Below, piece after piece: positions 1 to 5,644 of a stretch of DNA of 5,871 nt (its first letter is position 1; every line of letters begins with the position of its first letter). The notes below the pieces were generated by a model that saw nothing but the letters and a program-made list of their open reading frames with translations, searched no databases and was not told the DNA's origin. Source of the DNA: a virus (lineage: Duplodnaviria > Heunggongvirae > Uroviricota > Caudoviricetes); the IMG/VR virus record IMGVR_UViG_2534682252_000030; one strand, written 5' to 3'. A program made the translations under genes and the position numbers.

Positions 1-461
1 GATCATCGCTTCAGTTCCTGTATCAGCAGAGTCAGGAGCTTTTCGCTGACATTGCCATTGAAGCGGAGCGTCCCGTGCCGGAACGTTACCTCACAGCTGA
101 TACTGAGGGTTTCCGGGTCCTCTGCGAGCGATTCTGGCTGTTCGGCAGCTGCGTCGAGAGTCACAGGAAGTAGCTGGGGGCTCTCTGAAGAAGGTAATAG
201 CAGCTTTCCCTCGCGCCATTGTTGTCGCCATTTGAACAACAGATTGGCGTTAATGCCATTTTCAAGAGCAAGTTTTGAGATGGATATCCCGGGTTCACAG
301 GAGGCAGCAACGAGCTGCTGTTTAAATTCGGGAGGATAATTAGGGCAGCCTTTTCGCCTGCCGGGAGTCACATTTTTCTGCATATCTGATACTTTGGTTC
401 CCACTACTTATTTGGTGGACACCACTTTGTCTAATTCGTCAGATTCTGACCAGACGGTTCA
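1..461 (-). mobile_element. Inner end of an IS66-family-like insertion sequence; element continues past window start, exact terminus not resolvable (between 384 and 461)
   Basis: tnpA-like ORF at 3-383 replaces the expected large-terminase gene directly after a truncated Nu1-like ORF. The minus-strand sequence at the junction begins TGAACCG, and its TGA is the stop codon of the truncated ORF. No canonical IS66 GTAAGCG-type end was seen and the other end is outside the window. Confidence 0.4.
3..383 (-). CDS. IS66-family TnpA-like (orf1) accessory transposase protein; ATG at 383 preferred over the GTG at 404 used by the ORF track
   Basis: Translation MQKNVTPGRRKGCPNYPPEFKQQLVAASCEPGISISKLALENGINANLLFKWRQQW has the HTH pattern of IS orfA proteins. 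The C-terminus CEVTFRHGTLRFNGNVSEKLLTLLIQELKR resembles the conserved C-terminal block of IS66 TnpA as I recall it. No obvious Shine-Dalgarno sequence. Confidence 0.55.
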   Translation of the reverse strand: MQKNVTPGRRKGCPNYPPEFKQQLVAASCEPGISISKLALENGINANLLFKWRQQWREGKLLLPSSESPQLLPVTLDAAAEQPESLAEDPETLSISCEVTFRHGTLRFNGNVSEKLLTLLIQELKR

Positions 462-734
462 GGCTGTACGCTTTTTTAACTGCTGTGTAACAGCCTGTTC
501 TGCTGTCAGTTCCCATCTGGCAATAAGCAATTTCTCCTCATAGTCGTCTTCGCTATCGCCATCAGGCACATCGTTTTTACTTCTCCTCAGATACGATATG
601 TAAAAATCGCGCCAGGCATCCAGATCCAGTTGCCCTCGCTTATTCGATATCGGGGCACCCGGCAATTTCTGCAATCTGCGAAGCTGGCGATCGGTCAGAC
701 TTAAATGCCTGGCAACTTCAGTCTGCGTAGCCAC
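459..734 (-). CDS. Terminase small subunit, Nu1-like, N-terminal ~91 codons only (truncated; likely pseudogene)
   Basis: Starts about 195 bp from cosN, as lambda nu1 does. Has an N-terminal HTH-like segment (VARHLSLTDRQLRRLQ) and a C-terminal stretch ELTAEQAVTQQLKK resembling lambda Nu1 RLTRAQADAQELKN near residue 90-100. GTG start preceded by GAGGTGAGGA. Lambda Nu1 is 181 aa; this ORF stops at the IS junction. Confidence 0.55.
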   Translation of the reverse strand: MATQTEVARHLSLTDRQLRRLQKLPGAPISNKRGQLDLDAWRDFYISYLRRSKNDVPDGDSEDDYEEKLLIARWELTAEQAVTQQLKKRTA

Positions 735-1397: not shown

Positions 1398-1434
1398 TCT
1401 TATGGTAACAGGCAATAACGCTCACAGATATTTT

Positions 1435-1749
1435 TTAGCATTTTTTTGTACCGCGCGTTTCCGGACGTATTCTGTTCTCCTGTCCCTTTATATCGTCGGA
1501 ATACCCGCCGCTCTTCAAATCCCATTCCCAACTCAGAATGTAGTCTGTTGACCGCTTGTTTATTTCTGTCAGGTTCATCGGTGAAACCGGAGTCCGGCGC
1601 GCCTTACGCAAACACTCTGCTCGTTTCTGTGCCGCCACTTTTCTTTTCTGGTCATCACTTAGCTGTACCATCACTTTTGCCCATCGTTCAGCTGCTCTCC
1701 GGTACAGTCCTTTTTTCTCCAGACATTCTGCCAGGTGATCATGTAGCAT
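1435..1749 (-). CDS. PerC-family-like transcriptional activator (Pch-like), 104 aa; assignment by motif memory
   Basis: ATG at 1749 with GGAGG 7 nt upstream. N-terminal motif AECLEKKGLYRRAAERW resembles the conserved PerC-family block. Lysine/arginine-rich. Sits in the moron position between Rz and cos, behind a 460-bp AT-rich region. Confidence 0.45.
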   Translation of the reverse strand: MLHDHLAECLEKKGLYRRAAERWAKVMVQLSDDQKRKVAAQKRAECLRKARRTPVSPMNLTEINKRSTDYILSWEWDLKSGGYSDDIKGQENRIRPETRGTKKC

Positions 1750-2213: not shown

Positions 2214-2681
2214 TCACGGTATACACTGGGTACGGATATATTCCTGTGCTCCTTCCAGTTGCTTCTGCATTGCCATCAGCCGTTCTCTGAGGATGAAATA
2301 ATCCCGTTCAGCGGCTTCTGCCAGTCGGGGACCGGTTGCATTATCCACGCCGGAGGTGATGGGGGCTTTACGCAAGGAGCCTGGACAGTTGGCGTTGATG
2401 CGCAGGCGCTTACGACCAGCGGCAACATCAGCACGCAGAGTTTCATTTTCAGCTCTCGCATCGGCTAATTCCCTCGAGTATCTGGCATCAAGTGCAGCGA
2501 CATCACGCTGGCGTACCTGCATATCAGTAATTGTCACGTTCGCCAGCTTCAGCTCACTGGCTTTTTTATCGCGTTGCGCTTTGTAGGTAATGGCGTTATC
2601 GCGGTAATGATTCAGCCCCAGACTAAGCACACCACAGGCTACCAGCAGGACAATAATCACCACACACAGAACACGGTTCAT
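2214..2681 (-). CDS. Rz: Rz i-spanin (inner-membrane spanin subunit), 155 aa
   Basis: MNRVL...[45 protein letters not shown]...[20 protein letters not shown] aligns along its length with lambda Rz. N-terminal TM segment present. Confidence 0.9.
2276..2461 (-). CDS. Rz1: Rz1 o-spanin lipoprotein, embedded in the +1 frame of Rz
   Basis: [20 protein letters not shown]...[32 protein letters not shown] matches lambda Rz1, including the lipobox (VVSAC) and proline-rich core. True start may be the internal Met at about 2446. Confidence 0.85.
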
Positions 2682-3170: not shown

Positions 3171-3704
3171 TTATCTGTCAATTCCCCAGCACGCCAGCGC
3201 GCTCTCCTGGTCACGCCGTGAAACCTGACCGTAGCAGTTGTTTGAGCGAATACGGCAGTCTCTGCCACCGTCCTTAATCCACCAGCGAATCGCCTCACAC
3301 GCTCCCCTGCGATCACCTGCATTAATTCGTCTGTAAAACGTCGACGGGAAACACTTACCGGGACCAATGTTGTACGGACAGAATGACGCGATCCCCGCTT
3401 TCTGGGGTTCGGTCAGCGGTACTTTAATATTGCGCTCCACCCACTCCAGCGCCTTATCACGTTCAATGGCGTTAACCTGGTCGCATTTTTCCTTCGACAA
3501 CTTCATGCCCGGAACGACAGGTTTACCATCCACCAGGATGGCACCGCGGCAGATGGTCCAGATACCCGCACCATCACGGTATGCCGTGGTGTGGTTACCT
3601 TCTTTTTCGTCAAGAAACTGGTCGAGGATTTCAGGCGCAGACGCCCCTGCACCAATCAGCGCCAGAACGGCAGCCGACAGGCCGTATCTGATTTTTGCGT
3701 TCAT
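3171..3704 (-). CDS. R: Phage lysozyme (GH24, T4-lysozyme-like) with N-terminal signal-anchor-release-type segment; RrrQ-like, 177 aa
   Basis: Intact ORF. N-terminal weakly hydrophobic Gly/Ala-rich segment YGLSAAVLALIGAGASA. Catalytic E-x8-D-x5-T motif in EGNHTTAYRDGAGIWT. Close to my recollection of the K-12 Qin prophage lysozyme. Confidence 0.85.
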   Translation of the reverse strand: MNAKIRYGLSAAVLALIGAGASAPEILDQFLDEKEGNHTTAYRDGAGIWTICRGAILVDGKPVVPGMKLSKEKCDQVNAIERDKALEWVERNIKVPLTEPQKAGIASFCPYNIGPGKCFPSTFYRRINAGDRRGACEAIRWWIKDGGRDCRIRSNNCYGQVSRRDQESALACWGIDR

Positions 3705-3754: not shown

Positions 3755-4098
3755 TCAGGCCAGCGGTGGAGTCTTCAGAGAACCCGTAATTATTCCCGGT
3801 AGTTTTCCTCTGTAGGTTATCAACACATCCTGCGCCTCTAAAATTACGGGACGCTTTTCCGGTAACGGACCATCCCCTTCACATAACCCGGCAGCAACAT
3901 CCATGAAAAACTGCTTCGCCTGCTTTTTCGCCTCAGCTTCGTAAAACTCCAGCGTGGCACCTTCAGTACGGTCAAGACTAATCGCCACATCTGGCAACAA
4001 CAGTGACGGATACCCACCAATTTCCGGTGCCACAGTAACAGTAATCTTATCCGGGTAATTATTTATCCCTTTAACACCCAGTTCGTATTTTTCTTCAT
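3755..4098 (-). pseudogene. YdfR-like (DUF1327-like) small protein gene between holin and endolysin, disrupted by an apparent 1-nt deletion in an A5 run
   Basis: ATG at 4098 with GGGGGGAG 7 nt upstream opens MKKNTNWVLKG then stops. One extra A in the A-run (4088-4092) would join it to the long open frame MKKKYELGVKGINNYPDKITVTVAPEIGGYPSLLLPD...TPPLA ending at 3755. The track ORF 3755-4033 is the GTG-initiated tail of that frame. Family name is from memory of Qin gene order (essQ-ydfR-rrrQ). Confidence 0.45.
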
Positions 4099-4102
4099 CG
4101 CT

Positions 4103-4306
4103 TTACTCCCCCCGCGCCGCCTTACGACGGTCCTCTCTGATTTTGAAATACAGGTTAGTCAGATACGTCAGCAGGCCAAACAGCAGACTCCCAGCACACC
4201 GATTGCCACCCACTGGACGGAGAGACTTTGTCCAGCAGCTGCAGTAACCAGTATCCCGTCCCACCGCTGACGTGGTGTATGACACACCTGTTGTGATTTT
4301 TTCCAT
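4103..4306 (-). pseudogene. S: Class II pinholin (S21 / EssD-like) gene carrying three apparent single-nucleotide deletions
   Basis: The annotated frame gives [16 protein letters not shown]...[28 protein letters not shown], with a holin-like N- and C-terminus but a scrambled middle. The holin-like middle appears in the other two frames: [14 protein letters not shown], then QWVAIGVLG. Frame switches fall near 4260-4267, 4215-4218 and 4190-4192, each in a G or C run. Confidence 0.7.
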
Positions 4307-4351
4307 CTGATGTATGTCTCCGTCACCGCCGACAGAAAATGAAAGTAAAGG

Positions 4352-4386
4352 AAAACAAAAAGCCGCCAGTGTCGCCCACTGACGGC
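4352..4386 (-). terminator. tR'-like intrinsic terminator upstream of the holin gene (site expected for Q-dependent antitermination)
   Basis: On the minus strand: 10-bp stem GCCGTCAGTG / CACTGGCGGC (one G-U pair), loop GGCGA, then TTTTTGTTTTCC. Lies 46 bp upstream of the holin ATG. Confidence 0.6.
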
Positions 4387-4464
4387 CAACGCCGGGAGCC
4401 GTGATTATGGCATTCAGGCTCTGCTAAAAATGCCAGATAACATTCCGGCTCCCCCCCCTGATTC

Positions 4465-4571: not shown

Positions 4572-4596
4572 TGAACCGCCCCGGAAATCCTGGAGA
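4572..4596 (+). repeat. IS left inverted repeat (IRL)
   Basis: TGAACCGCCCCGGAAATCCTGGAGA; matches the reverse complement of the right end at 22/25 positions. Confidence 0.8.
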
Positions 4597-4625
4597 CTAA
4601 ACTCCCTGAGAAAGAGGTAAACAGG

Positions 4626-4952
4626 ATGACTAAAAATACTCGTTTTTCCCCCGAAGTCCGTCAGCGGGCGATTCGTATGGTTCTGGAAAGTCAGGATGAA
4701 TATGACTCACAGTGGGCGGCAATTTGTTCCATTGCCCCAAAGATTGGCTGTACGCCGGAGACTCTGCGTGTCTGGGTTCGCCAGCATGAGCGGGATACCG
4801 GGGGCGGTGATGGTGGGCTCACCAGCGCTGAACGTCAGCGTCTGAAAGAGCTGGAACGTGAAAATCGTGAACTGCGCCGCAGTAACGATATCCTTCGCCA
4901 GGCTTCCGCTTATTTTGCGAAGGCGGAGTTCGACCGCCTCTGGAAAAAATGA
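4626..4952 (+). CDS. IS3-family transposase OrfA (HTH / leucine-zipper DNA-binding component), 108 aa
   Basis: [22 protein letters not shown]...[34 protein letters not shown] is a typical IS629-group OrfA. SD-like GAGG upstream. Confidence 0.85.
4943..4949 (+). other. Candidate -1 programmed frameshift site (A-run) at the orfA/orfB overlap
   Basis: A6 run 4944-4949 directly before the orfA stop TGA (4950-4952), with orfB in the -1 frame starting ATGATG at 4949. IS3-family transposases are normally made as an OrfAB fusion by -1 frameshifting on an A-rich heptamer. Confidence 0.5.
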
Positions 4953-5602
4953 TGCCACTGCTGGATAAGCTGCGTGAGCAGTACGGGGTCGGACCGGTAT
5001 GCAGCGAACTGCATATTGCCCCGTCAACGTATTACCATTGTCAGCAACAGCGACATCATCCGGATAAACGCAGTGCCCGTGCGCAGCACGACGACTGGCT
5101 GAAGAGAGAGATACAGCGCGTATACGATGAAAATCATCAGGTGTACGGTGTGCGTAAAGTCTGGCGTCAGTTGTTACGGGAAGGAATCAGGGTGGCCAGA
5201 TGTACAGTGGCACGTCTCATGGCGGTTATGGGACTTGCCGGTGTTCTCCGGGGTAAATGGGCCCGTCGTCCGTCTGGCACCATCCATCACAGCGATAAAG
5301 GCTCTCAGTATGTGTCACTGGCCTATACGGAGCGACTAAAAGAAGCCGGATTACTGGCATCAACAGGGAGTACAGGCGACTCGTATGACAACGCGATGGC
5401 TGAGAGCATCAATGGTCTTTACAAAGCGGAGGTAATACACCGTAAGAGCTGGAAAAACCGTGCAGAAGTGGAACTGGCCACACTAACGTGGGTGGACTGG
5501 TATAACAATCGACGATTGCTGGGAAGGCTGGGCCATACTCCTCCGGCAGAAGCAGAAAAAGCTTATTATGCTTCCATCGGAAACGATGATCTGGCAGCCT
5601 GA
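4949..5602 (+). CDS. IS3-family transposase OrfB (DDE catalytic component) with an in-frame internal deletion of about 75-80 codons; probably catalytically dead
   Basis: 217 aa versus roughly 290 aa for IS3-family OrfB. Only about 11 residues separate GVLRGK from HHSDKGSQY (second catalytic Asp), where full-length proteins carry about 80 residues including the first Asp (D.TY motif). Downstream [15 protein letters not shown] block is intact. Junction near 5255-5260. Confidence 0.75.
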
Positions 5603-5619
5603 GTTCACAGATAAAACAC

Positions 5620-5644
5620 TCTCCAGGAAACCCGGGGCGGTTCA
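5620..5644 (-). repeat. IS right inverted repeat (IRR)
   Basis: Reverse complement reads TGAACCGCCCCGGGTTTCCTGGAGA. Confidence 0.8.

Follow-up and report, generated by a model that had tools for sequence, protein, structure and literature searches.

What is to be made of a holin gene that stays open from its start codon to its stop, and that gives an intact holin only when segments from three reading frames are joined? Such a gene lies in the window, i.e., the whole stretch of 5,871 nucleotides analysed here, and it could be an artefact of the assembled sequence, a lysis gene in decay or a variant kept by selection. A whole-window search placed the DNA in prophage Sp14 of Escherichia coli O157:H7, with 99.8% identity to positions 2689510–2695150 of the Sakai sequence (NC_002695.2). 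Full-length matches, the ISEc8 end included, were found in four genomes, those of NCCP 13946, 122, 2571 and F6321. The ORF map together with Pfam scans showed that the minus strand carries a lambdoid lysis cassette, and the features of the window are the following:

3–404, minus strand: tnpA of ISEc8 (IS66 family)
459–734, minus strand: 91-aa ORF cut by ISEc8, a partial hypothetical protein in the reference annotation
1435–1749, minus strand: PerC/PchC ORF of 104 aa, 36 aa of it scrambled
2214–2681, minus strand: Rz (i-spanin), Phage_lysis, intact by Pfam
2276–2461, minus strand: Rz1 (o-spanin), nested in Rz, intact by Pfam
3171–3704, minus strand: lysozyme of the Phage_lysozyme family, 177 aa, intact
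3755–4098, minus strand: ydfR/DUF1327, between holin and lysozyme, with a frameshifted start that leaves a 92-aa GTG-start ORF at 3755–4033
4103–4306, minus strand: holin ORF, class II (phage 21 S-type), PF04971, 67 codons, ATG start
4572–5644, plus strand: IS629/IS1203 copy (IS3 family) that lacks 237 bp internally and is inserted about 265 bp upstream of where the holin starts

The phage 21 pinholin S21-68/71 and the EssD and EssQ products of K-12 belong to the same family as the window holin by PF04971, and as in the cassettes of the S21 family, Phage_lysozyme, Phage_lysis (Rz) and Rz1 matches lie near the holin; in contrast to S21, the window cassette has ydfR between holin and lysozyme. 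The Sakai Sp14 locus shows the same context, with IS629 upstream and ydfR, lysozyme, Rz/Rz1 and pchC downstream. The lysozyme and the spanins had been described as intact in the first-pass annotation, and they are so both in the ORF map and by Pfam, the exact lysozyme and Rz proteins of the window being each present on at least about 1,000 contigs. The N-terminus of the lysozyme, YGLSAAVLALIGAGASAP, is rich in Gly/Ala and, judged by eye, is compatible with a putative SAR endolysin.

The 67-codon ORF matches PF04971 with 52.8 bits (cutoff 26), the alignment taking in residues 39–63 only. It was aligned with the intact 68-aa holins of O157:H7 PV15-279, NCCP 13946 and Sakai Sp14 (L001, L002 and L003), and against all three it shows exactly three 1-nt deletions and no substitutions, at sites that together span 72 bp. 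Over the wider region, window positions 4040–4420 differ from the intact PV15-279 locus by four 1-nt gaps and zero substitutions in 385 bp. Each of the four gaps shortens a run, and three of them fall inside the holin:

4260–4262, minus strand: frame hop 1, plus-strand C3 against C4 in the reference (coding strand GGGG>GGG, codons 16/17)
4215–4216, minus strand: frame hop 2, plus-strand G2 against G3 in the reference (coding strand CCC>CC)
4190–4192, minus strand: frame hop 3, back to the original frame, plus-strand C3 against C4 in the reference (coding strand GGGG>GGG)
4088–4092, minus strand: fourth 1-nt deletion, plus-strand T5 against T6 in the reference (coding strand A6>A5, ydfR codons 3–4)

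Read on the coding strand, the site of hop 1, the first of the three, changes as GGTGGGGAC>GGTGGGAC, that of hop 2 as CGTCCCAG>CGTCCAG and that of hop 3 as GCTGGGGAG>GCTGGGAG. Three-frame translation yields segments of 16 residues, 15 residues, QWVAIGVLG and 28 residues (frames 4309/4310/4308/4309), and the joined segments are exactly the intact 68-aa holin (WP_000411809.1; Sakai ECs_2743), annotated as a class II holin. At the DNA level, three G/C runs are each one base shorter in the window than in the Sakai Sp14 holin gene (ECs_2743, NP_310770.1, 68 aa), and once the three bases are restored, gene and flanks are identical. It had been proposed from the letters alone that a holin can be assembled here only by frame hops over about 75 bp, that the hops go back to the loss of single bases at three short G/C runs, a net change of −3, and that the outcome is a 67-codon ORF which stays open, holin-like at both termini and scrambled in between. 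The span of the sites, the alignment to the intact loci and the three-frame translation bear out these three points, respectively.

The 67-aa ORF has kept its start codon together with the adjoining upstream sequence. The dual-start arrangement, in which a 71-aa antiholin is made along with the 68-aa holin, is absent: the upstream codon is ATA and not ATG, in the window and in the intact references alike, so that the Sp14-type allele encodes the 68-type product only, without a dual-start antiholin. Unlike S21-68/71, the window allele therefore starts at MEK. Comparison of window positions 4307–4320 with the starts at loci L009, L011 and L021 shows that paralogous 71-aa MYQMEK alleles have ATG where the Sp14-type has ATA.

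The consequences for the protein can be read against the pinholin of phage 21. In S21-68, TMD1 contains an aromatic patch, YWFLQW, the loop reads LDQVSPSQ, and TMD2 is necessary and sufficient for pore formation (bioRxiv 10.1101/2021.04.20.440580). Measured against this published description, the intact parent of the window holin has YWLLQL in place of YWFLQW and LDKVSPSQ in place of LDQVSPSQ, and its layout is alike: TMD2 with Gly/Ser spacing, a charged C-terminal tail, then lysozyme and Rz/Rz1. The intact parent is thus an ordinary member of the S21/class II holins and nothing new in kind. In the 67-aa ORF as written, residues 17–38 are scrambled, a stretch that begins midway through TMD1, takes in the loop and ends 7 residues into TMD2, and residues 17–39 of the family are missing. 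By homology, TMD1 would lose its aromatic half, YWLLQL, and TMD2 its start, WVAIGVL, with the loop lost between them. The 11-residue Kyte-Doolittle mean does not exceed 0.06 over residues 12–36 of the ORF as written, while both hydrophobic segments are visible in the intact reference holin. What is kept is the C-terminal half of TMD2 with the charged tail, and the hydrophobic remainder of TMD2 counts about 16 residues, directly after N-R-C-A. A weakly hydrophobic TMD1 followed by a pore-forming TMD2 is accordingly not found in the ORF as written and appears once the three bases are restored. The first-pass annotation had the scramble replace TMD1; this is correct for the second half of that segment, but the scramble reaches on through the loop and 7 residues into TMD2. 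Its biological framing, with TMD1 as the domain that governs triggering in S21-type pinholins, finds no support: since the start of TMD2 is also destroyed, altered triggering through TMD1 is not the question, and an assembly error, which it had itself named as a refuting condition, is the favoured explanation. Were the deletions real, TMD2 in the product would be short of its N-terminal third, and with it of the first glycine of the Gly/Ser-spaced face; to judge from its sequence, the product should not be expected to form pinholes. The putative SAR-type lysozyme would then be left without a dedicated trigger from its own cassette, and the pinholins of other prophages could trigger it in trans.

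The holin is not the only altered gene, as two companion changes had been missed by the first-pass annotation, i.e., the 1-nt deletion in ydfR and a frame-restoring +1/−1 pair in PerC. The ydfR deletion lies about 100 bp downstream of those in the holin and stops ydfR after 11 codons, while the intact 114-aa YdfR is present on at least 998 contigs. The second altered region is:

1424–1561, minus strand: PerC patch, with a substitution at 1424, an extra T outside any run at 1449, and one base lost from a T run at about 1558

The +1/−1 pair in PerC/PchC (1449/1558) changes 36 residues, KQAVNRLHSELGMGFEERRVFRRYKGTGEQNTSGNARS to NKRSTDYILSWEWDLKSGGYSDDIKGQENRIRPETRGT, and keeps the ORF length at 104 aa. 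The complete list of small differences from Sakai and NCCP 13946 holds substitutions at 1424, 3851 and 3863, a one-base gain at 1449 and one-base losses at 1558, 4087, 4189, 4214 and 4259. The two references give identical lists at every shared position, and NCCP 13946, the sole reference that covers the ISEc8 end, adds substitutions at 153 and 246. Over the whole window there are hence 6 single-base indels against 3–5 substitutions (Sakai and NCCP 13946, respectively). The two substitutions at 3851 and 3863 also occur in other sequences, since the 92-aa ydfR remnant is found exactly on 24 contigs. Seven differences are private to the window (1424, 1449, 1558, 4087, 4189, 4214 and 4259), six of them single-base indels, and they are confined to two patches, one of 135 bp and one of 173 bp. 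With sites drawn at random, four of the six indels would fall within 172 bp with a probability of about 0.0014, both for a uniform draw and for a draw from runs of at least 3 nt. The 1,073-bp IS629 copy is matched at 100% by another copy, and one mismatch is seen in the first 1,164 bp. The runs that were altered in the holin patch are short, 3–4 nt plus one of 6, and the insertion at 1449 stands outside any run, while the longest runs are unaltered: C8 at 4451–4458 and T7 at 1441–1447, and in the holin C6 at 4108–4113 and T6 at 4297–4302.

The variant was sought in several collections. Of 5,426 complete E. coli genomes, 2,447 matched the holin-region query, at 8,930 places in all, and the best identity, 98.9%, corresponds to all four gaps. 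In this whole set of genomes, not a single holin-patch deletion is seen in a near-identical background, and intermediates with one or two deletions are likewise absent. For the PerC patch the best match was 98.8% among 673 genomes, where the variant is absent. Among 345 phage records there was no match above 99% identity, and the ten full-length phage matches listed are each 375–376 nt long, where the window has 371. Scans of IMG/VR contigs, GTDB species representatives and JGI metagenomes did not find the exact 96-nt pattern, and the 67-aa ORF, the 73-aa ORF that overlaps it and the PerC variant are all absent from a collection of 15 billion proteins that takes in Logan and ENA assemblies of public sequencing runs. 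The triple deletion was also missing from the loci reached through exact matches to the 92-aa ydfR remnant, the 217-aa IS629 OrfB and the 91-aa ORF beside ISEc8. By comparison, the intact holin and the intact PerC are each present on at least about 1,000 contigs, the holin region occurs in 9–13 paralogous copies and PerC in 3–5 per O157:H7 genome, and hundreds of O157:H7 genomes agree with one another at the positions of the private differences.

Does a holin of this scrambled kind occur anywhere else? A native holin family with such a middle in one frame, which would have spoken against the deletions, was sought with the 67-aa ORF as query in 5.8 billion protein clusters, and singletons only were found, two of which, when traced, sit in indel-rich assemblies. 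Five of these singletons (P0061, P0062, P0063, P0064 and P0067) ranked above intact holins, and all five have N- and C-termini in frame around a scrambled middle; like the window holin, they belong to the same family and show multiple 1-nt deletions. Genes are fragmented on the contigs of P0061 (RZTY01000003.1) and P0064 (NLPI01000002.1), and the contig with the gene of P0067 (VIFQ01000001.1; locus L008) has its SASA-esterase gene in fragments. At loci L021 and L022, 8–33 gap openings per 1.4–2.2 kb were counted against other loci. The holin at L021, an unrelated assembly, has three 1-nt deletions of its own, of which one lies at the identical GCTGGGG site (GCTGGGG>GCTGGG), shared with hop 3 of the window, and the other two within about 5 nt of the window's sites. 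The contraction of the ydfR A run recurs in 7 loci, in four of them on contigs whose neighbouring genes are fragmented. The density of indels differs, being about one per 60–175 bp in the three fetched contigs and about one per kb in the window, where it is limited to two small patches. The search itself favours frame-restoring combinations, because only these give long ORFs that resemble the query, and the restored frame of the singleton holins is therefore no evidence of selection. Singletons from fragmented contigs, at least P0061, P0064 and P0067, may inflate the apparent diversity of the family. Other singleton class II holins were seen with an internal duplication (P0065, 97 aa) or with small in-frame deletions (P0066, P0069 and P0071).

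The frame-hopping holin is probably, with a likelihood of roughly three in four, an artefact of the assembled sequence that arose from two local patches of consensus error, for which we infer a technical cause; in the true sequence, the ordinary 68-aa class II holin and the ydfR behind it are probably both intact. Two marks by which an error patch would be known are present: the differences are private while the relatives agree with one another, and indels outnumber substitutions and are clustered. The low-quality stretches of consensus would be 4087–4262, with the holin and the start of ydfR, and 1424–1558, with the 3′ half of PerC; bases would have been lost there, mostly from short runs, and one base gained. 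Thin coverage by poor read ends is a candidate cause. Another candidate is a long-read consensus that stayed uncorrected where short reads map ambiguously among many diverged paralogues, while identical IS copies, by contrast, would correct cleanly. A platform-wide, length-dependent bias at homopolymers is argued against by the unchanged longest runs together with the insertion outside a run, so that a local patch is needed; length-dependent homopolymer error of the 454, Ion Torrent or nanopore type is not supported, as C8, T7 and C6/T6 are unchanged and runs of 3–4 nt are contracted. Since the loss of three bases from one gene adds up to −3, the ORF remains open and the frame appears restored without any selection. 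Two further points count against the artefact. It is only moderately likely that both patches would leave their ORFs open by chance (the holin by −3, PerC by +1/−1), and, with the disruption by IS629 and ISEc8 and relaxed selection, real decay of a lysis gene is plausible.

Such decay, in which the deletions are real and the holin is a pseudogene of a defective Sp14-type prophage that suffered three slippage deletions at short G/C runs and further private indels in ydfR and PerC, with a non-functional 67-aa product and an incidental open frame, is unlikely; a mismatch-repair-deficient or otherwise mutagenised lineage could be its origin. Lysis genes of cryptic prophages are commonly inactivated. 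The prophage is visibly degraded, as IS629 separates the holin from the late genes and ISEc8 truncates the 459–734 ORF, all three changes in the holin are contractions of runs, the classic spectrum of slippage, and the unchanged long runs count in its favour in so far as they speak against a platform homopolymer error. Yet slippage rises with the length of the run and short runs alone have changed, and the insertion at 1449, outside any run and beside a private substitution, resembles poor base-calling. Moreover, seven private changes in 5.9 kb, gathered in two patches, would have to be set against hundreds of mutually identical O157:H7 genomes, and no intermediate with one or two deletions is known from the complete E. 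coli genomes. The ydfR deletion, which is uncompensated, also counts against a mutational route.

It is very improbable that a real, localised shower of −1 frameshifts struck the prophage, with four in 173 bp and the second patch 2.6 kb off, and left a scrambled holin that makes no pinholes. Error-prone repair synthesis, e.g., of the Pol IV type at a DNA break in the prophage, could be the source of such a shower, and the scrambled holin might then interfere with paralogous pinholins in the same cell.

A further reading, also very improbable, takes the deletions as both real and selected, by a compensatory restoration of the frame that yields a dominant-negative or antiholin-like product able to block paralogous pinholins. 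The open ORF would suit it, with its start codon, the C-terminal half of TMD2 and the charged tail kept, and the 9–13 related copies in each O157:H7 genome would offer targets for an inhibitor that acts in trans. However, conservation is zero, no other sequence carrying the variant. The −1/−1/−1 route offers no selectable intermediate: the −2 state is as dead as the −1 state, and selection therefore cannot drive the series. The hydrophobic remainder of about 16 residues that follows N-R-C-A is too short for a normal membrane span, and no rationale of this kind exists for the frameshifts that accompany it in ydfR and PerC. Two further candidates were rejected, recombination with a divergent paralogue, because no deletion was seen in a near-identical background at 8,930 genome places and in 345 phage records, and programmed frameshifting or phase variation, which needs three hops at runs of 2–3 nt, shows no conservation and faces a universal intact allele.

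With an artefact of the assembled sequence as the preferred reading, the main import of the locus is a caution about data quality: three bases dropped in a low-quality patch can mimic a gene whose frame has been restored, and the same false signal recurs for the class II holin family in public databases. Real deletions would add one more inactivated lysis gene, bearing only on host lysis by the defective O157:H7 prophage. A wider interest would arise only from a selected, interfering holin fragment, for which there is no support here.

The insertion sequences bear on the state of the prophage as a whole. The IS629 copy sits between the holin and the SASA esterase gene, and in all Sp14-type loci IS629 lies between the lysis cassette and the upstream late region, so that expression of the cassette is doubtful in any case. 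Compared with Sakai Sp14, the IS629 of the window carries the 237-bp deletion, at 5257/5258 within orfB, which leaves a 217-aa product, and the far end carries ISEc8 as in the four full-length matches. At the holin-proximal site, IS629 is intact in each Sp14-type reference that was examined. The deleted allele itself is found on 12 contigs, including EDL933, Xuzhou21 and FORC44, and a second prophage locus (L024, L030) has a copy with 100% identity to that of the window (1,073 bp). No obvious direct repeat was seen at the deletion junction. The deletion could be real and recurrent, could have come by gene conversion or could reflect mis-assembly of a repeat. At the other end, the 91-aa ORF beside ISEc8 is annotated as partial with its C-terminus missing, and a terminase small-subunit gene is annotated nearby in Sakai. 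The ISEc8 insertion at the Sp14-type locus is common to only four complete genomes, and many O157:H7 genomes have the junction of the 91-aa ORF with ISEc8 at the second prophage locus as well. At that second locus (L023–L030), the block IS629-PerC-Rz-lysozyme-holin is reversed relative to the SASA esterase gene and the 91-aa/ISEc8 junction, an order of genes that suggests an inversion between paralogous prophages.
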